A stretch of 64,000 bases of DNA, from assembly GCA_965219995.1 (NCBI GenBank), contig CBDCOX010000002.1, forward strand, positions 2,172,918 to 2,236,917, given 5' to 3'. The notes below the pieces were generated by a model, which made no database searches, was not told the origin of the DNA, and saw only the letters and a program-made list of their open reading frames with translations. The DNA comes from Candidatus Latescibacterota bacterium (GTDB lineage Bacteria > Latescibacterota > UBA2968 > GCA-2709665). How positions within the stretch are numbered: the first letter of the stretch is position 1; each line of letters opens with the position of its first letter. Made by a program: the position numbers and the translations under genes. Shown one piece after another: positions 5,349 through 41,877 of the stretch.

Positions 5349-8054
5349 ATGTCAGACAAAGTCGTCCGAATCCCCTCCCGAGACGTCGACCCCGCCGAAA
5401 CCCGGGACTGGATCGAATCGCTCGACTATGCCCTGAAGAACTACGGCCCCGACCGGGTCCGCTTCCTTTTCAAGAAAATCGAAGAATGGGCGCACCGCGC
5501 CGAAGTGGTCATCCCTTTCAGCGCGAATACGCCCTACATCAACACCATTCCGGTGGATCAGCAGCACCCGTATCCCGGCAACCGGGAAATCGAACGCCGC
5601 ATCAAAAGCATCATCCGCTGGAACGCCATGGCCATGGTGGTTCGAGCCAACCGTGAATACGACGGCATTGGCGGCCACATTTCCACCTACGCATCCGCGG
5701 CCACGCTGCTCGAGGTGGGCTTCGACCACTTCTTTCATGGCCGGGGAAACGGCTTCGTGGGCGACCAGGTGTATTTCCAGGGGCACGCGGCACCGGGTGT
5801 CTACGCCCGGGCCTTCCTCGAGGGCAGGATCGACGAACAGGCCCTGGAGAATTTCCGCAGGGACCTGCGACGCCCCGGCGGTCTGTCCTCCTACCCGCAC
5901 CCCTGGCTGATGCCCGACTTCTGGGAGTACCCCACGGTATCGATGGGCCTGGCGCCCATAATGGGCATCTATCATGCGCGGTTCAACCGCTACCTGGAAG
6001 ACCGGGGCCTCAAGGACACCTCCGGTTCCCACGTTTGGGTCTTTATGGGTGACGGTGAAACCGACGAGCCGGAATCCCTCGGCGCCATCACACTGGCCTC
6101 CAGGGAAAAGCTGGACAACCTCATCTTCGTAATCAACTGCAATCTCCAGCGGCTGGACGGGCCGGTACGCGGCAACGGCAAAATCATCCAGGAACTGGAA
6201 GCCGCTTTCAGGGGGGCCGGCTGGAACGTCATCAAAGTGATCTGGGGCGACGACTGGGACCCGTTGCTGGACCGCGACGAGGAGGGCATCCTCGCTCAGC
6301 GCATGAACGAAGTGGTAGACGGTCAATACCAGAAATATACCGTTGAATCGGGCGACTACATCCGACGGGACTTCTTCGGCGTGCATCCCGAACTGCTCGA
6401 CATGGTCGACCATCTCTCCGACGAACAGTTGCAGAAAATGCGCCGGGGCGGACACGACCCGGAAAAAGTGTACGCCGCGTACAGGTCGGCCGTGGAGCAC
6501 GTGGGCTCGCCCACCGTCATTCTCGCAAAAACGATCAAGGGCTACGGAGTTGGCGAATCCGGCGAAGGCCGGAACGTCACCCACCAGCAGAAGAAACTGA
6601 ACGAAGACGAACTGCGGGAATTCCGATCCCGCTTCGGAATCCCGATCTCAGACGGCGAAGTCGCCGCAGCACCCTTTTACCGGCCACCCGAAGACAGTCC
6701 GGAAATCAAATACATGAAACGACGGCGGGAGGAACTCGGCGGTTATCTCCCGAGCCGACAGGTCAATACGCAACCTCTCGCCGTTCCCCCGCGGGGCCTG
6801 TTCGACGAATTCCTGAAGGGCACGCAGGGCCGGCAGGCCTCTACGACGATGGCCTTCGTCCGGATGTTCTCAAAGCTCCTGCGCGACCCGGAAATCGGCA
6901 AACTCATCGTGCCCATCATCCCCGACGAAGCCCGCACGTTCGGCATGGAACCGCTTTTTCGACAATGCGGAATCTACTCCCGCGTCGGGCAGCTTTACGA
7001 GCCCGTAGACGCCGACAGGCTTTTGTATTACCGGGAGGTCCGGGAGGGTCAGATTCTGGAAGAAGGCATCAACGAAGCCGGCTCCATGTGCTCCTTCATT
7101 GCCGCGGGCACGGCCTATGCCACCTGCGGCGTAAACACCATCCCGTTCTTCATCTACTATTCCATGTTCGGGTTTCAACGCATCGGCGACCTGATCTGGG
7201 CAGCCGCGGATATGCGGTGCAAGGGCTTCCTGCTGGGGGGCACGGCCGGCAGGACCACGTTGAACGGCGAAGGCCTGCAACACCAGGACGGACACAGTCA
7301 CGTACTGGCCAGCACTGTGCCCAACCTGCTCACCTACGATCCGGCATACGCTTACGAAATCGCGGTCATCGTTCACGACGGGATCCGGAGAATGTACGCG
7401 GAGCAGGAGGACATCTTCTATTATCTGACGCTTGGGAACGAGCCTTACGATATGCCGTCTATGCCCGAGGGCGCCGAGGAAGGCATCATCAGAGGCATCT
7501 ACAGACTCAAGCCGGACGCCCTGGAAGACGCGACGCACCACGTTCAACTCTTCGGCAGCGGCGCCATTTTGAGGGAAGCGCTTCGCGCCCGGGAGATTCT
7601 GGCGGATAAATACGGCATCTCCGCGCAGGTCTGGAGCGTCACCAGCTACAAGGAATTGCGTAAAGACGCCCTCGAAACCGAGCGCTGGAACCGGCTGCAT
7701 CCTTCCGAGCCCGCACGCAAACCCTACATCGCCAGCGTACTCGAAAACACCAGGGGCCCCATTGTGGCCGCGTCCGACTATATGAAAATCCTGCCCGATA
7801 TGATCCGCCCCTGGGTGCCGCAGGACCTGATCGCCCTGGGTACCGACGGCTTCGGAAGAAGCGATACCCGGGAGGCGCTTCGCCGGCATTTTGAAGTCGA
7901 CGCCGAATCCATCGTCGTTGCCGCGCTCCACGCCCTCTCGAAACGGGGCGGCATCGGGGGAGACCGGGTCGCCGGCGCCATCGAAGATCTCGGCGTCGAC
8001 CCCGAAAAAGCCAATCCGGTCGCGGCGGGTCCAACGTTGAGTTACGGAAAGTAG
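5349..8054 (+). CDS. aceE: pyruvate dehydrogenase E1 component (homodimeric type)
   Basis: MSDKVVRIPSRDVDPAETRDWIESLDYAL... matches AceE N-terminus over ~900 aa; alternative upstream ATG at 5322. Confidence 0.9.
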   Translation: MSDKVVRIPSRDVDPAETRDWIESLDYALKNYGPDRVRFLFKKIEEWAHRAEVVIPFSANTPYINTIPVDQQHPYPGNREIERRIKSIIRWNAMAMVVRANREYDGIGGHISTYASAATLLEVGFDHFFHGRGNGFVGDQVYFQGHAAPGVYARAFLEGRIDEQALENFRRDLRRPGGLSSYPHPWLMPDFWEYPTVSMGLAPIMGIYHARFNRYLEDRGLKDTSGSHVWVFMGDGETDEPESLGAITLASREKLDNLIFVINCNLQRLDGPVRGNGKIIQELEAAFRGAGWNVIKVIWGDDWDPLLDRDEEGILAQRMNEVVDGQYQKYTVESGDYIRRDFFGVHPELLDMVDHLSDEQLQKMRRGGHDPEKVYAAYRSAVEHVGSPTVILAKTIKGYGVGESGEGRNVTHQQKKLNEDELREFRSRFGIPISDGEVAAAPFYRPPEDSPEIKYMKRRREELGGYLPSRQVNTQPLAVPPRGLFDEFLKGTQGRQASTTMAFVRMFSKLLRDPEIGKLIVPIIPDEARTFGMEPLFRQCGIYSRVGQLYEPVDADRLLYYREVREGQILEEGINEAGSMCSFIAAGTAYATCGVNTIPFFIYYSMFGFQRIGDLIWAAADMRCKGFLLGGTAGRTTLNGEGLQHQDGHSHVLASTVPNLLTYDPAYAYEIAVIVHDGIRRMYAEQEDIFYYLTLGNEPYDMPSMPEGAEEGIIRGIYRLKPDALEDATHHVQLFGSGAILREALRAREILADKYGISAQVWSVTSYKELRKDALETERWNRLHPSEPARKPYIASVLENTRGPIVAASDYMKILPDMIRPWVPQDLIALGTDGFGRSDTREALRRHFEVDAESIVVAALHALSKRGGIGGDRVAGAIEDLGVDPEKANPVAAGPTLSYGK

Positions 8055-29593: not shown

Positions 29594-31288
29594 CTACTCG
29601 ATAAATTCCTCGGCCAGGGGCAGCCGCGAGGCGGACAACGGATCGCCGCTCCAGCCGATGCTGTCGGTTCCGGCGACCAGTTCGAAGTCCACCGGGAGAT
29701 CGATGCGGAATACGGCGCCCGCGCCCGGACGGCTGATCATCCGCAGGGTACCCCGGTGGGCGGAGACGATGCGCGAACAGATGCTCAGCCCGAATCCATT
29801 GCCTTTTTCCTTGGTGGAAAACCCGGGGTCGAAGATCCTGGACTGGATCTCTTCGGATATGCCCGGTCCGTTGTCTTCCACCTCGATGAATACCGACCCG
29901 CGCCTGTTGTCGTAACCGGCCTGTACCGTGACGGCGCCACGCTCATCAACGGCGTCCAGCGCGTTGAGAATCAGGTTCGTGACGGCTTCACGCAGCATGC
30001 CGGGATCGACCTTGACCTGCGGGACGTGCGGTTCGGATGCGAAGCGGAGAGCCGCGCCTCCGGTGCGGGTCGCGACGGCTTGCCTGATTTTGCCCACGAG
30101 TTGCGGAATATCCACGAGTGACGGATTCAGCGGATCCTGCTTCATGCTGCGCAGATAGGCCACCCACTGGTCGAAGATGTGTTCCTGGTCGCGAGCGATG
30201 TCTCGCAGGTCGTCGAGTACGGCGTCGTGCTTCGAAACGCTCCGAATAAGCCGGCGTGTGCGGCTCCCCACCAGACCCATCAGATTCTTGATCTGGTGCC
30301 CCCGGGTGTACAGGCTTTCTCCCACCTGTACGCGTCCCATGTCGATGAGTTCAAGAGACAGGCGCGCCAGCACCGAGGCTGCCTGCGTACCGAATTCTTC
30401 GATGATGGCGGTATACTCCTGTTCCATCTGGGCCGAACTCTTGTGACCGAAGAGAAGATGCGCCAGGTTTCTGTAGGGTAGCGCATAGTCCGGCTCGAGC
30501 TGGATGGCAATCTTGAACGCGCCCAGGGCCTGGAGGGTCTGACCTGTTTGCATGAGCAAAACACCGAGGTTATTGTGACCCGGGGCGAACAGCGGATTTG
30601 CTTCCAGCCCGCGACGGTAAACTGTGATGGCCTCGTCCATGTTTTCCGGAAGGTCGTCGAGAAAGCTGGCCAACAGGAAACAGGCGCCGTCCACGTTGTC
30701 GAAGGGCACGCCACGGTCCACGGCCTCGAGAATAGACCGAAGCGCTTCAACCGCCTGCTGCCGGCCACTCGATCCCGAGGTCGCGCTCTCGGCCCGCAAG
30801 AGCGCCAACTGCAACTGCGCCTCCAGATGGTCCGGATTCGTTGCGATTGCAGACTCAAAGGCCTGCGCCGCTCCTTCAACGCCTCCTTTCAACCGGCAGA
30901 GACCGATCTTGTAATGCAGGTCCGCCCCAATCTCCGGCGCAAGTTCCAGGCAACGCGTGAAACATGCCAGCGCGTCCTGCCAGTTGCCTTTTCTGAAATG
31001 GACCGCGCCCAGGTTGTGGCGCGCCCGTACGTTCCCTTCATCGGCCGCCAGGGCGGCCAGGTAGGCGGCCCGGGCTTTCGACAGGTCGCCCGCTTCCATC
31101 GCGTTGTCGCCGTCACGACCGCGCCGCCTGGCTTCGTCGTTCGCCGATTCCGGCAGGGTCTGTGCGATGCCGATACGGTCGGCAGCCGCGGGTCGGCTGT
31201 CGGATTTTTCGGGTCGGTTCAAATCGTTGCTCCACGATGAAACGCTAAGAAGCTGTTTCCGATGCGCCCGCGTCGTCGCCGTTTGCAT
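29594..31288 (-). CDS. cytoplasmic TPR-repeat sensor histidine kinase
   Basis: N-terminal TPR repeats; HisKA H-box and HATPase_c (NLILNALDA...GxGLGL); no TM segment; alternative start ATG 31099 (MEAGDLSKARAAYL) would remove the 44-nt overlap with the flotillin gene. Confidence 0.8.
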   Translation of the reverse strand: MQTATTRAHRKQLLSVSSWSNDLNRPEKSDSRPAAADRIGIAQTLPESANDEARRRGRDGDNAMEAGDLSKARAAYLAALAADEGNVRARHNLGAVHFRKGNWQDALACFTRCLELAPEIGADLHYKIGLCRLKGGVEGAAQAFESAIATNPDHLEAQLQLALLRAESATSGSSGRQQAVEALRSILEAVDRGVPFDNVDGACFLLASFLDDLPENMDEAITVYRRGLEANPLFAPGHNNLGVLLMQTGQTLQALGAFKIAIQLEPDYALPYRNLAHLLFGHKSSAQMEQEYTAIIEEFGTQAASVLARLSLELIDMGRVQVGESLYTRGHQIKNLMGLVGSRTRRLIRSVSKHDAVLDDLRDIARDQEHIFDQWVAYLRSMKQDPLNPSLVDIPQLVGKIRQAVATRTGGAALRFASEPHVPQVKVDPGMLREAVTNLILNALDAVDERGAVTVQAGYDNRRGSVFIEVEDNGPGISEEIQSRIFDPGFSTKEKGNGFGLSICSRIVSAHRGTLRMISRPGAGAVFRIDLPVDFELVAGTDSIGWSGDPLSASRLPLAEEFIE

Positions 31289-32756
31289 TTGCGTCGCCGG
31301 TGGCTTTGCCCAGAAACTCGGGCAACTCCAGGCCCGCCAGTTTGGCCAGTTCGTGCATTGGCGGGATGGCGCCCATCAGGCGCTGCCCGAGATTGGACAT
31401 GCCGCCCTGTCCGCCGCCGCCGTCCCAGACCATGATTTTCTCCAGGGGGAGATTCTGAATGGCTTCCGCCTGAATGCCTGCGACCTCGGTCAGACGCTCG
31501 ACGATGAGGAAGGCCGCCGCAGCCTGGTCCTTTCCTCCGCACGCGGCCACCAACTCCTTGTAACCCTCCGCCTTGGCATCCAGAATGGCCTGGGTACCCT
31601 CGGCTTCGGCTCGCTTTTGGGCGAGAATTGCGGCGGCCTCCCCCTGCGCCACCAGCGTCCTCTGCACCTTCTCTGCCTCCGCCTGTACAACCAGCTTCTG
31701 TTTTTCCGCGTCGGCCTGTACCACAATTTCGGCTCTCAACCGGGCTTCTTCCCGGAGCGCCCGGGCTTCCTCGGCCTCTTTTTCGGCCCTTTCCTGCGCC
31801 ACCCGGATCGCGCCGTCCGCCGCCTTCGCGGCCTCCTGCCCCTGTTGCCGTGCAACCTCCTCGGCCACTTTCTGCCGGGCCATATAACCGGCTTTCTTGG
31901 AATCGGCATCGGCCTCCGCCTGTACCGCTTCCGCATCCAGAGAAGAAACCATCTGGCGTTTGTTTCTGGTGGCTTCGGCCTCGCCGATCTGGGCTTCAGA
32001 TTCCAGGGCGGCCACCCGCTGGCGGCGATCCCTGGCCGCTTCGGCCTCGCCGATTTCGGCGGCCGCGTTCGCGGCCGCCACGTCGGTGCGCTGGTCCCGT
32101 TCCCGCTCGGCTACACCCACCTTGCCCATCTTCTCCTGCTCGGCCACGTCGATTGCCGCCTGGTTGATGGCTTCGGCTGCGGCCTTTTGCCCGAGAGCCT
32201 TGATATAACCGCTTTCGTCTTCTATGTCCTTGATGTTCACGTTAATCACGGCCAGGCCGATTTTTTCCATTTCGGTAGAGACCGCTTCATTGACCTTGGA
32301 CATGAATGCCTGCCGATCCTGGTTGATTTCTTCAATTTCCATCGTGGCGATCACCGCCCGCATCTGGCCGAGGATGATGTCCTGCGCCTGACTCTGGATC
32401 TGGTCGCGAGAGAGTCCCAGGAGACGAATCGACGCGTTCTGCATCACGCCCATCTGGTTTGATACGGCCGCTGTGACGGTTGTGGGAACAGACACCCGGA
32501 TGTTCTCCTGCGACAGGGCGTTGTCCAGATCGATGGGAACAACGAATGGCTCAAGATCCAGATACTCATAGTCCTGCAGGAGAGGCAGCACGAAGGCCGC
32601 GCCCCCGTGAACGCATTTTGCCGCCCCTTTTCCTGTTTTTCCGTAGACGACCAGAATCTTGTTGGACGGGCACCGCTTGTACCTCGAAATAAACGTCACG
32701 AAGAGCAGGAACACCACCAGCAGCAATATAATTGTCAATACGGTCTCGGTTGACAT
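31245..32756 (-). CDS. flotillin / SPFH (band-7) family protein (YqiK/FloT-like)
   Basis: N-terminal TM helix, SPFH domain, long Ala/Glu-rich coiled-coil (AEAAARDRRQRVAALESEAQIGEAEA...) typical flotillin. Confidence 0.85.
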   Translation of the reverse strand: MSTETVLTIILLLVVFLLFVTFISRYKRCPSNKILVVYGKTGKGAAKCVHGGAAFVLPLLQDYEYLDLEPFVVPIDLDNALSQENIRVSVPTTVTAAVSNQMGVMQNASIRLLGLSRDQIQSQAQDIILGQMRAVIATMEIEEINQDRQAFMSKVNEAVSTEMEKIGLAVINVNIKDIEDESGYIKALGQKAAAEAINQAAIDVAEQEKMGKVGVAERERDQRTDVAAANAAAEIGEAEAARDRRQRVAALESEAQIGEAEATRNKRQMVSSLDAEAVQAEADADSKKAGYMARQKVAEEVARQQGQEAAKAADGAIRVAQERAEKEAEEARALREEARLRAEIVVQADAEKQKLVVQAEAEKVQRTLVAQGEAAAILAQKRAEAEGTQAILDAKAEGYKELVAACGGKDQAAAAFLIVERLTEVAGIQAEAIQNLPLEKIMVWDGGGGQGGMSNLGQRLMGAIPPMHELAKLAGLELPEFLGKATGDANANGDDAGASETAS

Positions 32757-33052: not shown

Positions 33053-33658
33053 TCAGGACAACAGCGGCTCGACCTCCAGCGTTGTCGTATCCACCACGCG
33101 AAGAACCCTGACCGGTGTCTTTGCGGAGATGGACATCCCGTTTTTGCCGCGGGCCGATACGTAGGCGACCGCCCCGCTCTCCATCACCCGGACCTGTCCG
33201 TTCCCGCATTGGGGGATGTCCAGATATACCTCACCAGAGGTTCCCACGCACGTATCCAGATTGGCGTTTCCAGTCTCGGTGAGCTTCCGGACATTGTGGA
33301 AGAAATAGGCAACGACCCCCATGCCTGCACTGCCCCAGACAAACGCGTAAAACACTGCCGTCCGAACGTCCAGACCTCTCTCCAGATACAGAGCTCCCGC
33401 CCATCCGAACAACATGCCAAAGGCGATCAGAGACCTGATAGACAGCAGTTTGAATGCCGCCACCGTGCCGTCTCCCGGTCCGTCGTTCAATTCGGGACCC
33501 GCGTCGCCAAGTTCCGCGTCGCCATCAATGCCGGCGTCGGACCCGCCCAGGCCAAAAAGGGCTGCCAGGAGTTGCCAGACAAAAAACGCGCTGAAAAACG
33601 CCGCCAACACGTAGAACGCCTGGTTGAGGACGCTCAGATCTGTCCACCATCCATCCAT
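33053..33658 (-). CDS. NfeD/YqiJ-family membrane protein (flotillin partner)
   Basis: Multi-TM N-terminus and C-terminal OB-fold-like soluble domain; upstream of the flotillin gene as in the E. coli yqiJK pair. Confidence 0.65.
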   Translation of the reverse strand: MDGWWTDLSVLNQAFYVLAAFFSAFFVWQLLAALFGLGGSDAGIDGDAELGDAGPELNDGPGDGTVAAFKLLSIRSLIAFGMLFGWAGALYLERGLDVRTAVFYAFVWGSAGMGVVAYFFHNVRKLTETGNANLDTCVGTSGEVYLDIPQCGNGQVRVMESGAVAYVSARGKNGMSISAKTPVRVLRVVDTTTLEVEPLLS

Positions 33659-33876: not shown

Positions 33877-34452
33877 TCACGAGGGAACCAGCCCCCGCTT
33901 TCTGAATTCACCCTTCAATTGAAATCTTCCTCGGTTGAGCCAGGTCTTGACCGTGCCCATCGGAATCTGCAACTCCCTGGTAATTTCCTCGTAGGACCGG
34001 TCTCTCACGTAGCGCATCCAGAGTACTTCCCGATACCTGGACGGCAATGACCGAATGCTCTTCCTGACCAGGTCCCGGTGCTCGTTTCGCTGGACGGACA
34101 GTTCAGGGTTCTCGCCTGGTGCAGGCCTGCGTGTGGCGTCGGCAAGAGCAGCCGGATCCTCCGTTGTCTGAATCCATTTTCGCCGTACCTGCTGTTTGCG
34201 AAAATGGGACTTGTGTACGTTGAGCGCGATCTGGGTGAGCCACGTGGCAAAGGCTGCCTCCCCGCGGTACGAGCCGAGGGCCAGAAATGCCCGCAGAAAG
34301 GCAGTCTGCATCAGGTCCTGCGCGGTATCGGGATCGCTCGTTCTGCGAACCATCGTGGCGTAGACCTGTTCGTGGCAGGCTTTGTAAAGGTCTCCGAAGG
34401 CAGCCGCGTCTCCCGCGACTGCTTTCCGGATCAGATACCGTTCGTTTTCCAT
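33877..34452 (-). CDS. ECF-type RNA polymerase sigma-70 factor
   Basis: Region 2 (FGDLYKACHEQVYATMVRR...DLMQTAFLRAF) and region 4 HTH (SYEEITRELQIPMGTVKTWLNRGR). Confidence 0.85.
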   Translation of the reverse strand: MENERYLIRKAVAGDAAAFGDLYKACHEQVYATMVRRTSDPDTAQDLMQTAFLRAFLALGSYRGEAAFATWLTQIALNVHKSHFRKQQVRRKWIQTTEDPAALADATRRPAPGENPELSVQRNEHRDLVRKSIRSLPSRYREVLWMRYVRDRSYEEITRELQIPMGTVKTWLNRGRFQLKGEFRKRGLVPS

Positions 34453-34483: not shown

Positions 34484-34659
34484 TTACCTGGAGTCGCTGG
34501 TAAGCAGCCGGTAACCCACGTAAATCAGGACAATCGAAACTGACAATTTAAGGAGCAGGAAAAGGATTTCCAGAGACACGCCGATCAGCTTGATCGCTTC
34601 GAAGATGCCGAGGTACGCGCCGATGCCGATCAGGATGATGCCGAGAATCTTCGCGAACA
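34484..34659 (-). CDS. small hydrophobic membrane protein (58 aa), not in supplied ORF track
   Basis: Hand-translated MFAKILGIILIGIGAYLGIFEAIKLIGVSLEILFLLLKLSVSIVLIYVGYRLLTSDSR; AAGGAAA RBS 6 nt upstream of ATG 34659; sits between PspB-like genes and the ECF sigma gene. Confidence 0.4.
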
Positions 34660-34780
34660 TGGGATTTCCTTTCTTGTACCGATTTATTGCAGTTAGCGAA
34701 AATCCAGCCAGGGAATCGGGACAAACCGCGAGACCCTTTCAGCCGGGGTTTGCACAAGCGTAAAACCGTCTTAAGGCCAA

Positions 34781-35158
34781 TCAGCCACCTGGATTCTTGG
34801 CTTCCGATCGGCTCAGTTTGTCGTCCATCGAAATGAGTACGTCCTGAACGTCAGTGACCCTCCGCTCCAGATCGTTCAGGCGGGCATTGAACGCTTCCGT
34901 CTGCTGCGCGCCGATTCCGCGGGACTGGCCCCCGGCACGGCGTTTCAGGAAGATCACGACGCTGCCGAGGGTGAAAACTGACACGGCACCGATTACGGAG
35001 ATCGCCAGAATTCCAAGCGCGATATCCATGGCGAATCTCCCGAAGCCGAAATGGCGCGTCGGTGCCAGAGGGTCGCCGAAGAGAAACTTCAGCGTTGCCA
35101 TGCCCAGGAGAAACAGAACAAAGATGATGGCGGCCTTCGTCGCGAATTCTCGTGTCAT
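34781..35158 (-). CDS. PspB-like membrane protein, paralog 1 (2 TM + C-terminal conserved helix)
   Basis: C-terminal FNARLNDLERRVTDVQDVLISMDDKL motif shared with two neighbouring paralogs and pattern-similar to PspB/PspC leucine-zipper helix; AAAGGAG RBS 8 nt before ATG 35158. Confidence 0.65.
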   Translation of the reverse strand: MTREFATKAAIIFVLFLLGMATLKFLFGDPLAPTRHFGFGRFAMDIALGILAISVIGAVSVFTLGSVVIFLKRRAGGQSRGIGAQQTEAFNARLNDLERRVTDVQDVLISMDDKLSRSEAKNPGG

Positions 35159-35189
35159 CAGGATCACTCCTTTCTATCGCAGCCCAAAC

Positions 35190-35765
35190 CTATACTTTCG
35201 TTCGGTCCCTTCTAAGCCCCTCGTCCAGGCTGATGATGACCTCCTGGAGATCGTTCAAGCGCTGGTCAACGGTATCCAGCCGCTCTTCCATTCGTCTCGC
35301 CCGGTCCGGACTCATCCCCTTGCCCTCCCGCTTTTTCCTGAGGTGTATATAGCTCACCAGACCCCCGGCGAAGATGATCAGGCAGATTCCGATGCCGATT
35401 TCCATTGCGATACCAAGACCGGTTCCGGATCGAACCAACTCGAGACGGTCCGCGACGCCTTCAAGTTTCCTGGCGGCCGATTCTAATCGCCGCTGGTTGT
35501 CCAGGAGTAGACTCACGCCTTCGTCCGACAGACCACTTGCACTACCGACCTCGGTCGGTCCCGGTATATAATCAGCATCCGGCAGCACGTTCCATCGGTC
35601 AGACGTGAAGGCCCAGATTGCGAACCCGACGGCCGCCACCGCCAGGAAGATCCCAACCGTTGATCCGCTCGGCTTCTTGTTACCGGGGGTCATCAGGTAG
35701 ACTGAATACCCGCCCGCAACCATCAGCAGGCAAAGGGCTAACGCCAGTTCCAGTATCCAGCTCAT
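35190..35765 (-). CDS. PspB-like membrane protein, paralog 2
   Basis: N- and mid-protein TM segments, C-terminal MEERLDTVDQRLNDLQEVIISLDEGL motif; GAGGAGGGA RBS. Confidence 0.65.
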   Translation of the reverse strand: MSWILELALALCLLMVAGGYSVYLMTPGNKKPSGSTVGIFLAVAAVGFAIWAFTSDRWNVLPDADYIPGPTEVGSASGLSDEGVSLLLDNQRRLESAARKLEGVADRLELVRSGTGLGIAMEIGIGICLIIFAGGLVSYIHLRKKREGKGMSPDRARRMEERLDTVDQRLNDLQEVIISLDEGLRRDRTKV

Positions 35766-35832
35766 CGTGTTCCCTCCTCTTGTTTCCCGGACTTATGCAA
35801 ATCAAGCGGATAAATTCATACCTGTCAGAGAT

Positions 35833-36207
35833 TTACACGACCTTTCTCAGCTTGCTTGCAGTGGCGTCCGGTCCGGCGGCTCCCGGGTCTGCCTTCTTGA
35901 GGACACCAGACAGTCTCGTGGTCCTCAGTGTCTTGTCGACACTTCCGGATACGCCGCTCAACTTCAGTTCGCCGCCTGCGCCCCTGACAGTCTTCAGACC
36001 GCTGATCAACTCTCCAATCATGGCAGCGCCGACAAACTTCAATTTTGACAGGTCGACCACGACCGTCCGGGCCCCGCTGTTCGCCAGGTTTCGTATTTTG
36101 CGTCGCAGCGGCGCCACTTCCGACCTGGCGACGGGGTCGCCGCTGACGGAGACAATGACCGCTCCGCCCTGAATGCGTTCGCCGACGTCAATGCGCCTCG
36201 AATTCAT
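35833..36207 (-). CDS. STAS-domain anti-sigma-factor-antagonist-like protein (non-phosphorylatable)
   Basis: MNSRRIDVGERIQGGAVIVSVSGD...VVDLSKLKFVGAAMIGEL: SpoIIAA fold, but the conserved Ser/Thr position carries Ala (GAAM instead of DSSG); AGAGGGA RBS before ATG 36207. Confidence 0.7.
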   Translation of the reverse strand: MNSRRIDVGERIQGGAVIVSVSGDPVARSEVAPLRRKIRNLANSGARTVVVDLSKLKFVGAAMIGELISGLKTVRGAGGELKLSGVSGSVDKTLRTTRLSGVLKKADPGAAGPDATASKLRKVV

Positions 36208-36298
36208 CGTACAATCCCTCTTGTTTTTGTGTAAATCCGGTCCGCGTGGGACAGTCCGGTGATTCCTGCCATTGGATTTCATCCGATTCCGGCGTCCC

Positions 36299-36514
36299 TT
36301 ACGACGTTTCCCCCGGGCTTCCTCGATCGAGCTTTTCGTCGATCGCGATCATGATTTCCTGGATATCGGTAAGCCGCCGATCCAGGTCGTCCAGCCGGGC
36401 GTTCAATCGATCCTCGACTTTGCCGGGCACGGAACCCTTGGTCTGTCGATCCACATATTTCAGTACAGCCGACGCAAGAACAATCAGCGCAACGCCAACA
36501 CCGACTTCAAACAT
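36299..36514 (-). CDS. PspB-like membrane protein, paralog 3 (71 aa, single TM)
   Basis: MFEVGVGVALIVLASAVL TM then VEDRLNARLDDLDRRLTDIQEIMIAIDEKL; GGAGGGA RBS. Confidence 0.7.
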   Translation of the reverse strand: MFEVGVGVALIVLASAVLKYVDRQTKGSVPGKVEDRLNARLDDLDRRLTDIQEIMIAIDEKLDRGSPGETS

Positions 36515-36540: not shown

Positions 36541-37170
36541 TCAGAGTTCATCCACTGGTTTTGCCTGGCGTTTTTCCTGACCGCGTTCAATTTCAGGAAA
36601 ATAGTACACGACGAGTCCGGATTCGGAGACGCGCACCTCGGCGCTGCCTTTCTCGCCCAATGTGCGCAGGATCTCCTCCGCCTTCTCTACGGTCATCCGC
36701 CCATCGGTTGCGGCTTCCAGCACGGTGAGGCTGCCTCCCTTTTCGCGGGCGAGCCTGAGCAGGCGATGCTGATATTGCGCATATCGCTTCCGGTCGGCCG
36801 ATTCGTGCGCCGTGCGTCCCGCAAGCCTGAATACAAGCGCGCCGGTCAGGGCCAGGATAAACAGCAACGCCTCCGGGTGGAACGAGCGCTCGACAATGCC
36901 GATGACGAAGGGGACAATCGCGGCGAATACACACAAGATCGCGGCAGCTTTCAGGAAGTGTCCGAGGACGTATCGCATGTCGCAGCTCCAATTGATGGCC
37001 ATGTCCGAAATCCGAGTCGACAGACCCGCGGACCGTGCACGGCAAGCCTGACGCGGGTATTGCCGTCCATCGCCGCCCTTACGGGCCGCCTCCACGGCCT
37101 TTTTCGCATCGCGTACGGCATTCCTGACTTCATACGCGATCTCGTCCAGAATTTTCTGTACCTCACGCAT
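36541..37170 (-). CDS. membrane protein translationally coupled to pspA (function unknown; LiaI/PspM-like role inferred)
   Basis: Start ATG overlaps pspA stop (ATGCGTGA, 8-nt overlap); amphipathic N-terminus, 2-3 TM helices, C-terminal soluble domain. Confidence 0.6.
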   Translation of the reverse strand: MREVQKILDEIAYEVRNAVRDAKKAVEAARKGGDGRQYPRQACRARSAGLSTRISDMAINWSCDMRYVLGHFLKAAAILCVFAAIVPFVIGIVERSFHPEALLFILALTGALVFRLAGRTAHESADRKRYAQYQHRLLRLAREKGGSLTVLEAATDGRMTVEKAEEILRTLGEKGSAEVRVSESGLVVYYFPEIERGQEKRQAKPVDEL

Positions 37171-37840
37171 CGGACTTGCGCATCCTGTCTTTCAGGGCCT
37201 GCAGTTCCTCTTCCACGGTGTTCTGCCGTTCCAGCTTTTCGAATGAGTCTTCGAGCGAAGGATCTTCTCCCGCAATTTCGGCGTGCGCATGGGCCTCTGC
37301 TTCTTCGGTCTCCACCCGATTCCGGAAGCGCTCAAAGCTCGAAAACGCGTCGTCGCCGACACCCGAAAGTCCCTGGGCGATCTGCTTTCTCGCCTGAGCG
37401 GCGCGACGCCGGGCGATAAGAGCGCCCTGACGGGTGCGTGCCTCGTCCAGTTTGGATTTGAGTTGCGTTAATTGCTTCTTGAGCTGATCGGAGGTCTTGT
37501 GGCTTTCGTCGAAAGCGACTTCCAGATCCAGGGCGGCTCTTTCAACCGCGGCTTTTCGTTCCAGCGCGCGCCGCGCCAGGTCGTCTTCGCCGGACTCGAC
37601 GGCCAGCTCGGCCTTCTTCTGCCAGGACTCGATCTGGTCCGTCTTGTCCAGCAATTGACGCTCAAGGCGTTTTTCGTTGGCAACGGCGGTGCCGACGGAC
37701 GCGGTTGCCTTGTTGACGGCCTCTTCCATTTCAAGGATCATCTGCCGGATCATCTTTTCCGGATCTTCGGCGCGATTCAGAAGATCGTTGATGTTGGCCT
37801 TGACGATGTCCGCCATGCGGGAGAAGATTCCTTTGGCCAC
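37163..37840 (-). CDS. pspA: phage shock protein A / IM30 / Vipp1 family protein
   Basis: MAKGIFSRMADIVKANINDLLNRAEDPEKMIRQMILEMEEAV... canonical PspA N-terminus, coiled-coil throughout. Confidence 0.9.
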   Translation of the reverse strand: MAKGIFSRMADIVKANINDLLNRAEDPEKMIRQMILEMEEAVNKATASVGTAVANEKRLERQLLDKTDQIESWQKKAELAVESGEDDLARRALERKAAVERAALDLEVAFDESHKTSDQLKKQLTQLKSKLDEARTRQGALIARRRAAQARKQIAQGLSGVGDDAFSSFERFRNRVETEEAEAHAHAEIAGEDPSLEDSFEKLERQNTVEEELQALKDRMRKSDA

Positions 37841-37931: not shown

Positions 37932-37947
37932 TTGCAAGTATCGTACC
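37932..37947 (-). promoter_or_regulatory. putative sigma54 (-24/-12) promoter for pspA operon
   Basis: Minus-strand GGGTACG-ATAC-TTGCA vs consensus TGGCACG-N4-TTGCW, ~95 nt upstream of pspA ATG; locus encodes a sigma54-dependent activator. Confidence 0.45.
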
Positions 37948-38215
37948 CGTTTTACAAAATAGGCGATCCCGATGTTAAATGTCGGTATTTACTGGCTTTA
38001 TACTGACACGTGAAATCATGTCACCAATAGAAGTTGGTGAAAAACGCCGTACACAAGGCGAAAACGACCGGATCGAATGGCCGTGGAGTGCCTGATCATG
38101 AACGGAGCCGGCTTGTCTTTTGGGGACAAATGGCGTAATATCTGGGGTGTTCTGCCGGTTGAACCCGACCGGTGCGGTCGCTGTTTCATTCGAGTCTCCG
38201 CGTTGGACCATAGTC

Positions 38216-39337
38216 ATGAAAAACTGTCGCCATCTGCGTCTGTTCAGTGTCGCACTCTGCGTGGTCATGTTGCTTGCCAGCCCCCTTGCCGGGCTCTCGC
38301 TTGTACACAAGGTCCGGAAAGGGGAATCTCTCTGGTCCATTGCCCGGCAGTGGGGAACGAGCATCCGGGAGATCAAGCGAATCAACAAGCTGCGCACCAA
38401 CAACGTCTATCCGGGCCAGGTGCTACGCCTGGGCGCGCGGATCGTCAAATACGACGCGGCGAACGGTCCGTACTACTGGCGAAAGCCGAAGGCGTCAAGG
38501 CAAAGGCACCGGAACTATTCCGAAAGGGCGCGCTCCGCCCCGAGTGTGGATTATCGCCGGGCCCAGGCCCTTTTGCGCGCCTTCGACAACGAGATTCTCG
38601 CCAAGGCGCCCAAGAGAAGAAGGAAACCGCTGAAGGGCTGGTGGATCGTGCTCGACCCGGGGCACGGCGGCATCGATCCGGGCGCGATCGTTTCCAATTT
38701 GACGGGCAAGAAACGACGGGTCTACGTGGTCGAAGACGAATACGTGTATGATATTGCGCTGCGAATGTACAAGAAACTCCGGCTCCTGGGCGCGGAGGTG
38801 ACACTCACGGTGATCAGCCCCAATCATCTGATTCGGGAAAACCAAACGGCCAAAATTACATTTGTCCACGAAAAGAACGAAGTCTATAACGATGAACGGT
38901 ACAACCGGAGGAATTCGGAGAAGGTACGCCCCAGGAGCGCCAATATCTCACAGCGCGTCCGGGTTGCAAACCGCTTCGTCAAGCGGGCGCGCGGGGGCAG
39001 GAGCCTGTTTGTCTCGGTACACGCGGACAACACTCCCGGACGATCCAGGGGGCCCCTGGCGATCTATCATAAACGGCGGGGCAGGGTTGACAGCCGGTCC
39101 AGGGCGTTCGCCCGTGTCATGCGTTCGGTCCTGCACCGGCGGGACCTTCCGGCTCGGGTTCAGGGGCGGAACCTTGCGGTATTGCGGAACAATCTGGCCC
39201 ACGCGGAGATTCTGGTCGAGGTCCACAACGTCCACTATACGCACGACGCCTATCAGATCCGGTACCATGAACATCGGGAGCGCGACGCGGATCGGCTGGT
39301 AAACGGCATCCTGGCGTATGCCAGAAAACGTCGATGA
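38216..39337 (+). CDS. LysM-domain N-acetylmuramoyl-L-alanine amidase (Amidase_3 family)
   Basis: Signal peptide MKNCRHLRLFSVALCVVMLLA; LysM (HKVRKGESLWSIARQWGTSIREIKRIN); amidase motifs LDPGHGGIDPGA...SVHADN. Confidence 0.8.
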   Translation: MKNCRHLRLFSVALCVVMLLASPLAGLSLVHKVRKGESLWSIARQWGTSIREIKRINKLRTNNVYPGQVLRLGARIVKYDAANGPYYWRKPKASRQRHRNYSERARSAPSVDYRRAQALLRAFDNEILAKAPKRRRKPLKGWWIVLDPGHGGIDPGAIVSNLTGKKRRVYVVEDEYVYDIALRMYKKLRLLGAEVTLTVISPNHLIRENQTAKITFVHEKNEVYNDERYNRRNSEKVRPRSANISQRVRVANRFVKRARGGRSLFVSVHADNTPGRSRGPLAIYHKRRGRVDSRSRAFARVMRSVLHRRDLPARVQGRNLAVLRNNLAHAEILVEVHNVHYTHDAYQIRYHEHRERDADRLVNGILAYARKRR

Positions 39338-39432: not shown

Positions 39433-41877
39433 CTATCGCATGAATCTCCGGATCCGAAGTGAATTCGAGATGACCGAGACCGAACTCAGGGCCATGGCGC
39501 CGGCCGCGACCATGGGACCCCCGAGCGGATTGAGCAGGCCGAGTGCGGCGACCGGAATCAGCAGGACGTTGTAGACGAACGCCCAGAACAGGTTCTGGCG
39601 GATCGTGCGCATGGTCCGGCCCGACAGGCGGATGGCGGTCTCTATTCCTGACAGGCTGCCGGACATCAGGGTGATGTCCGCGGTTTCCATGGCAACGCCC
39701 GTACCGGTCCCCATGGCGATGCCGACATCCGCGGTCGCGAGGGCGGGCGCGTCGTTGACGCCGTCCCCGACCATGGCCACACGGTGACGCCCGGTTTGCA
39801 TTGCTGCGATCCGGGCGGCCTTCTCTTCGGGAGTTACCCCGGCAGCGACCCTCGCGATCCCTGCCTGTTCGGCGATGGCGCGGGCGGTTTTCTCGTTGTC
39901 TCCGGTGAGGAGGACGACGTCAAGTTCCAGTGACTTGAGATCTGAAACGGCGCGGACAACGTCCGGTTTCAGAACGTCTGCTACGCCGATGAGCCCCTCT
40001 ACCTGATCGTCTACAGCGACGAACAGGACCGTTTTGCCGCCGGCTTCCAGACGCGCTGCCCGCGCATCCAGATTGTCAGGTACCATCGTACGGGATTCCA
40101 TCAGACGCCGGTTGCCCAGAAGAATGGTGCGACCGGCCTTTTTTGCGCGCACGCCCAGCCCTGGCAGGGCTTCGAATTCCACCGAATCTTCAATCTTCTG
40201 CCCCCGTTCCCGCGCCGCGTTGCGGACGGCCTCTCCGAGGGGGTGTTCGGAACCCTGTTCGACGGCCGCCGCCAAATTGAGAAGTTCCGTTTCCGAGCGG
40301 GATCCGGCGGTGACGAGATCGGTCACGACGGGCCGACCGGTAGTCAGCGTGCCTGTCTTGTCCAGGACAATCGTGTCGAGCCTGTGCGCGGATTCGAGGA
40401 CGTCGCCGCCCTTGATGAGAACCCCCAGTTCCGCCGCACGGCCGGTGCCCACCAGAATGGCGGTGGGTGTGGCCAGGCCGAGCGCGCACGGACAGGCGAT
40501 GATGAGGACCGCAACGGCGTTGAGCAGCGCGTCGGGATTTCCGGATCCTGAACCCGCGATCCACCACAGGGCGAACGTCATCACCGCAATTCCGAAAACC
40601 ACGGGTACAAAAATACCGGCAACGCGGTCCGCGACGCGCTGAACGGGCGCGCGCGCGCCCTGAGCCTGGCGCACCATCCGAACAATTCGCGCATGCACCG
40701 TCTCGGCGCCGACCTGCGAAGCCTGGAAAGTGAAGCTTCCCGTCCTGTTGAGCGTTGCCCCGAGGACACGGCTGCCGGCGCCTTTCTCAACGGGGAGGCT
40801 TTCGCCCGTGATCACGGATTCGTCAACGCCCGATCGCCCGTCCTGAACAACCCCGTCCACCGGGATTCTGTCGCCCGGTCTGATGCGAAGCAGGTCTCCA
40901 ACGGCGACGTCGTCCACGGAAACGACCAACTCTTCCCCATCGCGAATCACGCAGGCGGTCTCCGGGCGAAGGTCCATCAACCCGCGGATCGCTTCGGTGG
41001 TGAGCCCGCGGGAGCGGATCTCCAGGACCCGTCCCAGAAGGATCAGGGTAACGATCATCGCTGAAGTGTCGAAGTAGACGTTGACGGGCTGTCCTGCTCC
41101 CGCGACGGACGCGGGCGCCAGCACGCCGGCGACGCTGTATCCGTACGCCGCGAGCGTGCCGACGGCGATGAGGCTGTTCATGTCTGCAGTCCCGTGGCGC
41201 AGACCGTTCCAGAACCCACTGAGAAATCGCCAGCCGCACCAGAATTGCACGGGGGTTGCCAGGACGAACAGCAACAGATGCACCTCTCGCGTGGAGAACG
41301 GCGTGCCATGGATTTTGTGCGTCATCCCCGCACCCATAATGAGGGTTGACAGCACCGCCCCAACGACGAGACGAACCCACACCGAACGGCGATCCGTCAG
41401 TTCCGTCGCCTGGTCTTCGTCTTCTCCGGTTGCACGCTCCTCCAGGACCGTTGCGCCGTATCCGGCATCGACCGCCGCCCCTGTGAGGAAGGACGCGTCA
41501 ACGTGGAGATGGCGAACGGTTGCCTGACCGGTTGCGAAGTTGACCGTGGCGTCAATGACGCCGGGTATCCCGTTCAATGCATCTTCGACGCGGGAAACGC
41601 ATGCGGCACAGCTCATGCCGCGAATGACGAGCGCCGTTTCCGCGATGCGCAGCCCGTAGCCGAGACGCTCGATTCTCCGGACAAGCTGCTCCTCGTCGGC
41701 CTGATCGGGACTGAGCAGCAATGTCGCCTCCGCCGTCGCGAAGTTGACGGCCACCTCGTTTACGCCGCTGATTTCCTGCAGTTCTTTCTGGATCCGGGCG
41801 GCGCAGGCGGCACAACTCATGCCGCTGACGGGCACGGTCAGGCGGACGGCGGGGTTCGTTTCGAGAATTCGGGACAT
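39433..41877 (-). CDS. copA: copper-translocating P1B-type ATPase
   Basis: Two N-terminal HMA domains ([22 protein letters not shown]), CPC motif [19 protein letters not shown] phosphorylation site, [10 protein letters not shown]. Confidence 0.9.

Follow-up and report, generated by a model that had tools for sequence, protein, structure and literature searches.

In bacteria, the ESCRT-III machinery of membrane repair is represented by the phage shock protein (Psp/PspA) systems. To our knowledge, little is understood, outside Proteobacteria and Firmicutes, of how PspA receives the cues for the place and time of its action. Here we analyze a stretch of 64,000 nucleotides (nt) of a Candidatus Latescibacterota bacterium (contig CBDCOX010000002.1, positions 2,172,918 to 2,236,917; hereafter "the window", at its full length of 64 kb), in which three paralogous membrane proteins ending in a common helix, named p71, p128 and p191 after their lengths in amino acids (aa), are encoded downstream of a pspA gene. 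The proteins belong to a small and rare family that is uncharacterised and for which there is no Pfam or NCBIfam model, and their genes appear to hold the position of pspB and pspC in a variant of the Psp system that is predicted to be sigma-54-dependent.

The best-matching described protein is PspB (PF06667 / TIGR02976) of E. coli and Yersinia. Like p71, it is small (about 70 aa) and bitopic, sits in the inner membrane with an N-terminal transmembrane (TM) segment and has a cytoplasmic heptad helix; its gene is located downstream of pspA in a sigma-54-dependent operon, and its domain is known in multiplied form, fused to different N-termini. PspB is rare outside Proteobacteria (PMC11237479, PMC9239133). 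The multiplied arrangement is found in Erythrobacter litoralis, whose operon encodes PspA, PspB, PspC+PspB, four SIG+PspB proteins and PspB (Ravi et al. 2024, Table S3, PMC11237479); therefore, several small membrane proteins sharing a Psp tail behind varied N-termini are already known. PspC (PF04024) is another psp membrane protein, and its cytoplasmic C-terminal leucine-zipper-like helix has been implicated in PspA binding.

Outside this group, LiaI of B. subtilis and PspM of Actinobacteria are lineage-specific small membrane proteins that are likewise encoded beside a pspA homologue and are thought to tether or recruit the PspA-like protein. However, their sequences and topologies are unrelated to those of the proteins studied here, they are under the control of LiaRS or ClgR instead of sigma-54, and neither a portable tail motif nor a tandem expansion has been described for either of them. 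The pspA-ydjGHI cluster of B. subtilis resembles the window and its close relatives in that pspA is clustered with NfeD-like and flotillin genes, but it contains no genes of the motif family, no counterpart of p209 (the gene following pspA in the window), no sigma-54 promoter and no kinase with tetratricopeptide repeats (TPR). Two large surveys of Psp systems (PMC11237479, PMC9239133) make no mention of Latescibacterota, Gemmatimonadota or a cassette of pspA, p209 and motif genes, and a full-text literature search did not retrieve any paper on the tail-helix family.

The three paralogues and their motifs are located in the window as follows:

36299-36514, minus strand: p71, a motif protein of 71 aa with a single TM helix, core member of the family
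36323-36397, minus strand: the 25-residue helix motif of p71 (residues 40-64), RLDDLDRRLTDIQEIMIAIDEKLDR
35190-35765, minus strand: p191, a paralogue of 191 aa with three hydrophobic segments (open reading frame (ORF) call)
35208-35282, minus strand: the helix motif of p191, RLDTVDQRLNDLQEVIISLDEGLRR
34781-35167, minus strand: p128, a paralogue with two hydrophobic segments (ORF call)
34808-34882, minus strand: the helix motif of p128, RLNDLERRVTDVQDVLISMDDKLSR

The true start of p128 is likely the ATG at position 35158, which would give a protein of 125 aa, judging by its orthologues (P0150 and L004), which begin with MTREF/MSREL. A preliminary description of this DNA had regarded the three proteins as paralogues with different membrane topologies and a common C-terminal helix. 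The three peptides that it quoted are present verbatim in p71, p191 and p128, and the paralogy is borne out by several comparisons. Phmmer aligned p71 with p191 at E = 3e-11 and with p128 at E = 3e-9, and a family hidden Markov model (HMM) scored between 69 and 83 bits on the three proteins, the highest value being that of p71 (83 bits). Their 25-aa cores share 11-14 of 25 residues, and the alignment reaches N-terminally via a basic linker into the last TM helix. Since the similarity runs through this K/R-rich linker into the last TM helix, the shared unit is not the helix by itself but the combination of TM helix, linker and tail helix. The topologies were also as described, with one (p71), two (p128) and three (p191) hydrophobic segments in hydropathy analysis.

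An AlphaFold2 (AF2) model of p71, built with its orthologues, shows a TM helix (2-25), a short loop and a second helix (31-64) that is predicted to be cytoplasmic. The basic residues following the TM helix fit an N-out, C-in orientation. By the positive-inside rule, and by the architecture of long forms of the family in which a signal peptide is followed by a periplasmic domain, the tail helix would thus be located in the cytoplasm. In p191, a loop of about 60 aa is predicted to be periplasmic. Two parts of this protein, residues 1-27 (WILELALALCLLMVAGG) and a helix in the loop at residues 85-110 (LLLDNQRRLESAARKLEGVADRLE), resemble degenerate copies of the module. As the HMM gives negative scores to both the first TM segment and the loop helix, we rejected the possibility that p191 arose by internal duplication of the module.

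To define the family we used a profile made of p71 orthologues together with the C-terminal modules of p128 and p191. An exhaustive search of 1.84 billion representative proteins with this profile yielded 233 members at E<=1e-3 and 55 at E<=1e-10. None of the three window proteins gave a Pfam or NCBIfam match at E<=1. The family module runs from the last TM helix through a short basic linker into a helix of about 34 residues, predicted to be cytoplasmic, which bears the 25-residue motif. The consensus of this motif is R-L-x-x-L-E-R-R-L-T-D-I-Q-D-V-M-I-A-I-D-E-K-L-x-R, and the pattern R-[LIM]-x-x-[LIV]-E-[RQK]-R-L-T-D-[IVT]-Q-D-[VI]-[MVL]-[IL]-[AST]-[IL]-[DS]-E-K-[LFM]-x-R, placed at the end of the protein and present in all three window proteins, defines the family. 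Most of the profile matches are short proteins (65-125 aa) that have 1-3 TM helices and carry the motif at their very C-terminal end. About a dozen long forms (250-517 aa) begin with a signal peptide, continue with a periplasmic domain and one TM helix, and end in the same tail; in six of these, the periplasmic domain is CBM9_1. Thus, the N-terminal parts to which the module is attached comprise one to three TM helices, a TM2 domain, a CBM9_1 periplasmic domain or periplasmic regions of 280-350 aa. A few long repetitive coiled-coil proteins among the matches are probably spurious. A tblastn search of plasmids with one family member gave no matches.

The tail helix is built on regular a/d heptads (core residues L41, L44, L48, I51, M55, I58 and L62 of p71). 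One conceivable reading is that the three tails are alike by chance, or as low-complexity coiled coils without a shared function. In line with this, the helix gives weak matches to many coiled-coil models in Pfam, a search of PDB sequences with the family profile detected generic coiled coils only (best E 0.05), and part of the helix is indeed generic in composition. However, the conservation is not confined to the core. R40, R47, D50 and Q52 are invariant in at least 97% of 135 family members; each of the positions 40-64 of p71 carries 1.8-4.2 bits of per-column information in these 135 sequences, such that every face of the helix is conserved, and the surface positions T49, D50, Q52, D53, E60, K61 and R64 are strongly conserved as well. 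Because a generic coiled coil conserves only its core, this pattern points to a specific interface. Family E-values are as low as 1e-20 to 1e-27, and exactly three motifs were found in the 64-kb window, both by a six-frame search with a regular expression and when the HMM was run on all its ORFs of 35 aa or more. The preliminary description had allowed for a coiled coil that is common in unrelated proteins; the count of three motifs and the conservation of all helix faces do not agree with this. Together with the four near-invariant residues in 135 sequences and the strict synteny described below, these results leave a negligible probability for chance similarity.

The genes surrounding the paralogues that matter for the argument are the following:

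37932-37948, minus strand: element resembling a sigma-54 promoter (GG-N10-GC), GGGTACGATACTTGCAA, which precedes the pspA start by about 95 nt
37163-37840, minus strand: pspA, encoding a PspA/IM30 protein of the ESCRT-III superfamily (PF04012 PspA_IM30, 8.8e-48), first gene of the operon
36541-37170, minus strand: p209, whose start overlaps the pspA stop by 8 nt
29594-31288, minus strand: soluble histidine kinase with TPR repeats and HATPase_c (Pfam); its start codon is uncertain, and its orthologues have 542 aa
28184-29590, minus strand: NtrC-type response regulator with REC, sigma-54 AAA+ and Fis HTH domains (Sigma54_activat 9.7e-63; Response_reg 1.7e-20)

The pspA product also matches TIGR02977 at 1.1e-54, which is below the equivalog cutoff of that model. 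A consensus scan of the minus strand revealed no convincing intrinsic terminator between the genes of the cluster. The motif genes had been described as a triplication next to pspA. They are on the same strand and in the same operon, but they are not contiguous with it: p209 separates pspA from p71, and a gene for a STAS-domain protein separates p71 from p191.

We then analyzed the genomic context of the motif in other bacteria. One genome per GTDB species was scanned, using only the peptide pattern ERRLTD[VIT]QD, and 23 species-level loci were obtained, labelled as Latescibacterota (16), Gemmatimonadaceae/Gemmatimonadetes (5), a Rhodospirillaceae metagenome-assembled genome (MAG) (1) and "uncultured bacterium" (1). 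In 22 of them, the motif ORFs are located immediately downstream of pspA and p209 homologues on the same strand. More distant contexts (L109, L110/L111, L113 and L115) were added from contigs of members found in the profile search. In total, the motif genes are linked to pspA in 26 of 27 informative contexts, with p209 in between in 25 of those 26, and the number of motif genes per locus ranges from 1 to 6. In L109, pspA and a p209-like gene precede three motif genes, and these are followed by the genes for the TPR kinase and the sigma-54 regulator. L115 contains five motif genes and L113 six, one of which encodes a Pfam TM2 domain (2153-2533 of L113). In L110/L111, pspA is followed by a TM2-domain motif protein and a long-form motif protein with CBM9 (in L110, 5608-5970 and, for the CBM9_1 protein of 446 aa, 6001-7341), and these loci have neither p209 nor the TPR kinase. 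As the motif is fused to TM2 and CBM9_1 proteins directly after pspA, the helix is a portable module.

The close relatives tell the paralogues apart. All three are present in L004/L005, where the identity to the window proteins is 82% (p71), 81% (p191) and 45% (p128), and p191-type genes are also present in L007, L010 and L011. A closely related complete genome (L001-L003) contains p71 only; therefore, p71 is the core gene, and p191 and p128 are older, dispensable additions. The p71 orthologues are 57-97% identical to p71 of the window, and in the close relatives p71 is always the first motif gene after p209. The hosts of the family are Latescibacterota/Gemmatimonadota-like bacteria and some others.

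In L001-L027, the region ahead of pspA contains a TGGCAC-N5-TTGC(A/T) element in 22 of 25 loci, at 62-135 nt from the pspA start, and by our own estimate the regular expression for sigma-54 elements should occur by chance in a few per cent of loci. A strict search for the sigma-54 consensus (one mismatch) missed the element of the window, which was revealed only by the comparison across loci. Downstream, a homologue of the TPR kinase is present in every locus with pspA, p209 and motif genes that reaches far enough, and the NtrC-type regulator comes after it wherever the locus is long enough; in distant loci, the histidine kinase and response regulator genes follow directly after the motif genes. 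Judging from the conserved element, the psp operon would be sigma-54-dependent here, outside Proteobacteria, and the NtrC-type regulator is presumed to be the activator of the pspA promoter, with the two-component pair apparently taking the place of PspF. The conserved cassette can be summarized as a putative sigma-54 promoter followed by pspA, p209, one to six motif genes, the histidine kinase and the response regulator.

These results led us to consider how the paralogues might act. On balance, we hold it probable that they are tandem paralogues of an inner-membrane family that is a fixed accessory of a sigma-54 Psp operon and plays a role like that of PspB/PspC. The tail helix would be a common cytoplasmic docking or output element, and the variable membrane and periplasmic parts at the N-terminus would serve as alternative sensors or anchors. 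In the role of PspB/PspC or LiaI, the paralogues could report the state of the membrane or periplasm and recruit or release PspA, and, directly or via PspA, they could tune the soluble TPR kinase and the NtrC-type regulator that drive the operon. PspA is favoured as the partner, since no other component is found in all of the pspA-linked contexts, L110/L111 included. With the Erythrobacter operon as a precedent, a PspB-like role gains in prior probability, and the triplication in itself is less novel.

Several points weigh against this reading. It is a single lineage (L110/L111) that sets PspA ahead of p209 and the TPR kinase as the partner. One long form, of 304 aa with a signal peptide, a periplasmic part, a TM helix and the motif (L028, 7194-8108), has no pspA within 8 kb and is the sole exception among the 27 contexts. 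The loci are phylogenetically clustered, 16 of 23 being labelled Latescibacterota, so the synteny partly reflects shared ancestry. The sigma-54 element of the window deviates from the consensus at two positions, although GG and GC are retained. Finally, both the expression and the topology of the proteins are predictions. The TPR domain and the winged helix of p209 are serious alternative partners of the tail. Of the proposal, made from the sequence of the window, that multiple membrane-stress inputs converge on one PspA, one half, namely diverse membrane parts joined to a shared output in the cytoplasm, is strongly supported by the comparison of loci, with very varied N-terminal parts, 1-6 copies and 26 of 27 contexts directly downstream of pspA. 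In the other half, PspA is the favoured target.

The gene adjacent to pspA in the operon is not pspC but p209. The p209 protein matched no Pfam domain, and all of its homologues are annotated as "hypothetical". According to its AF2 model (mean pLDDT, the predicted local distance difference test, 79.6), it begins with a helix, which is followed by two long TM helices, and ends in a winged helix (pLDDT about 90). Weak sequence matches were obtained to the winged helices of IclR, MarR, TrmB and SelB. The tightest match in Foldseek was the human ESCRT-II subunit SNF8 (3cuq_A, 1.5 Å, 30% identity over 60 columns), with generic winged helices of MarR, ArsR and Z-alpha scoring equal to it. The p209 protein may serve as an adaptor of PspA, which is ESCRT-III-like. 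A bolder version of the PspB/PspC-like reading, which we regard as possible but doubtful, is that the tail helix is a portable "plug" on PspA and p209 an ESCRT-II-like adaptor, the two forming a modular system of ESCRT-III recruitment under the TPR kinase, the NtrC-type regulator and sigma-54. Any sensor domain that gains the helix may then become an input to PspA or an anchor for membrane repair, and, if this is true, the plug and p209 would make up a previously unrecognised modular system of ESCRT-III recruitment in bacteria.

Independent of this bolder version, the Psp repertoire gains two unannotated families, the tail-helix proteins and p209, and what the genes indicate to be a sigma-54 psp operon with a two-component pair in place of PspF. 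The cassette is compact and conserved, and it clearly delimits a candidate docking peptide: 25 residues, four of them polar and near-invariant, that are carried on many sensor parts. This peptide would give a testable handle on how PspA or its regulators recognise their partners.

The preliminary description had likened the proteins to PspB and PspC themselves. With respect to layout, the likeness to PspB is good for p71: PspB has about 75 aa, a single N-terminal TM segment and a helical C-terminus, and p71, according to its length of 71 aa and its AF2 model, fits this. p128 and p191 have one and two hydrophobic segments more, respectively. With respect to sequence, the likeness is faint. We used the E. 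coli PspB sequence as checked against the database and PspC sequences taken from metagenome loci; the resulting target profiles are narrow, since the metagenome scan gave only E. coli-like loci, and tblastn of PspB against plasmids likewise returned Enterobacteriaceae only, plus one Aeromonas match. BLASTP of p71 against E. coli PspB produced no alignment. Of 136 family members scanned, all of them top matches of the exhaustive search, five are touched by the PspB model PF06667, in the same register and with a best E of 1e-3; the two matches that were inspected had 9.9 and 12.9 bits against a cutoff of 25.6. Other coiled-coil models match more of the 136 members, namely DUF7310 (15) and XhlA (12). 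Using hhalign, the comparison of the family module with a PspB alignment (Enterobacteriaceae only and of low diversity) gave 47% (P 2e-4), over 16 columns locally and over 52 columns, collinear from TM to helix, with relaxed settings. In the controls, 30 shuffles of the cytoplasmic columns reached at most 45.4% and reversed sequences 0.1%.

In both the Pfam and the hhalign registers, the matching stretch is the segment that precedes the family hallmark, of the type (A)(K/R)RM.ER(L/I)..LE..L, and PspB ends where TDxQD begins. The hallmark of the family (TDxQDVMIAxDEKLxR) has no counterpart in PspB; conversely, neither the three window proteins nor the family consensus contain LExILDAEHPNWR, the signature that is shared without exception in the PspB alignment. 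The systems differ as well: the family is accompanied by p209 instead of pspC and by an NtrC-type regulator and a TPR kinase instead of PspF, and its hosts are Latescibacterota/Gemmatimonadota-like MAGs. As for PspC, there is a local similarity of the RLxE(M/L)ER..(V/L)T type, but R47, D50 and Q52 of the family are unmatched, the PspC domain HMM gave no match at E<=1 for p71, p128 or p191, and the hhalign value against the PspC tail (enterobacterial alignment) was 28%. With HMM scores below the cutoff, the PspB hallmark missing and an hhalign value barely above the shuffled controls, membership in either family is unsupported, and on their sequences we do not file the proteins under PspB or PspC.

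The same data bear on the question of ancestry. The proteins could be true, highly divergent PspB homologues of non-proteobacterial phyla that were expanded as in some Alphaproteobacteria. The size of p71, its layout of TM segment and helix, and its place in a sigma-54 pspA operon are those of PspB, the hhalign value lies above all 30 shuffled controls with a collinear path from TM to helix, PF06667 keeps its register in the five members it touches, and multiplied PspB is known from the Erythrobacter operon. Yet all scores are sub-threshold, the BLASTP comparison was empty, none of the 136 members has a PF06667 match better than E 1e-3 and more of them match DUF7310 and XhlA, and the aligned stretch stops short of the hallmark on the family side, with ILDAEHPNWR absent. 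A common origin with PspB is possible, with a faint signal, and we would give true PspB homology clearly less than an even chance. It overlaps in function with the PspB/PspC-like role preferred above and differs from it only in the claim of ancestry.

The architecture of the kinase suggests another partner for the helix. The kinase has about six TPR repeats, no TM segment and an NtrB-like H-box (GHQIKNLMG). TPR domains commonly bind short helical or extended peptides. The tail helix could therefore be a ligand of the TPR domain, in which case the motif proteins would be the membrane sensors of the two-component system and PspA only its output. A kinase without TM segment needs some membrane-derived input, and in distant loci its gene directly follows the motif genes; however, L110/L111 encode two motif proteins and pspA with no TPR kinase nearby, and we consider this explanation unlikely.

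Besides the conserved cassette, the cluster of the window contains the following genes:

35833-36282, minus strand: STAS-domain protein of the anti-sigma-factor-antagonist type (Pfam STAS 5.2e-9; TIGR00377 2.3e-12)
34484-34660, minus strand: p58, a hydrophobic protein of 58 aa, upstream of the ECF sigma gene (ORF call)
33877-34452, minus strand: sigma-70 factor of the extracytoplasmic function (ECF) type (Sigma70_r2, r4_2; TIGR02937 3.9e-29)
33053-33658, minus strand: NfeD-like membrane protein (weak Pfam NfeD match, E 0.11)
31245-32756, minus strand: flotillin (SPFH/Band 7; Pfam Band_7 1.2e-27, FloT model 2e-40)

The STAS gene, which likely starts at the ATG at position 36207 (124 aa), was found only in the window and its closest relatives (L001-L005). 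Downstream of the motif genes, the window and close relatives have the genes for p58, the ECF sigma factor, the NfeD-like protein and flotillin, the NfeD-like gene keeping its place upstream of flotillin in the close relatives; distant cassettes lack all four. These five genes are lineage-specific insertions. No partner anti-sigma kinase of the STAS protein was seen in the cluster.

The presence of flotillin and NfeD genes in the window and its close relatives, together with the regular a/d heptads and the known link between PspA and flotillin in the pspA-ydjGHI cluster of B. subtilis (PMC8581546, PMC9239133), would be consistent with tail helices that form homo- or hetero-oligomeric coiled coils and scaffold membrane microdomains with these two proteins, PspA being only loosely connected. 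As distant cassettes keep pspA, p209, the motif genes and the kinase-regulator pair without flotillin or NfeD, and the conserved surface positions argue for a specific heterologous partner, such scaffolding is improbable.

The ECF sigma and STAS genes of the cluster allow for yet another role: the motif proteins could be anti-sigma factors in the membrane that act on the neighbouring ECF sigma factor and are antagonised by the STAS protein. The distribution of the genes does not fit: the STAS gene is confined to the closest relatives, and the ECF sigma gene is missing from distant cassettes that contain motif genes. Moreover, the topology of the motif proteins is opposite to that of typical single-pass anti-sigma factors, in which the cytoplasmic domain is N-terminal, and no match to an anti-sigma domain was obtained. 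We rejected this very improbable role on phyletic grounds.

On the other side of pspA, a gene encoding a cell-wall hydrolase with LysM and Amidase_3 domains (38120-39337, plus strand) is oriented divergently from it, and beyond this gene lies one for a heavy-metal P-type ATPase (39433-41877, minus strand). Both neighbours are kept in close relatives (L001-L016 and L115).

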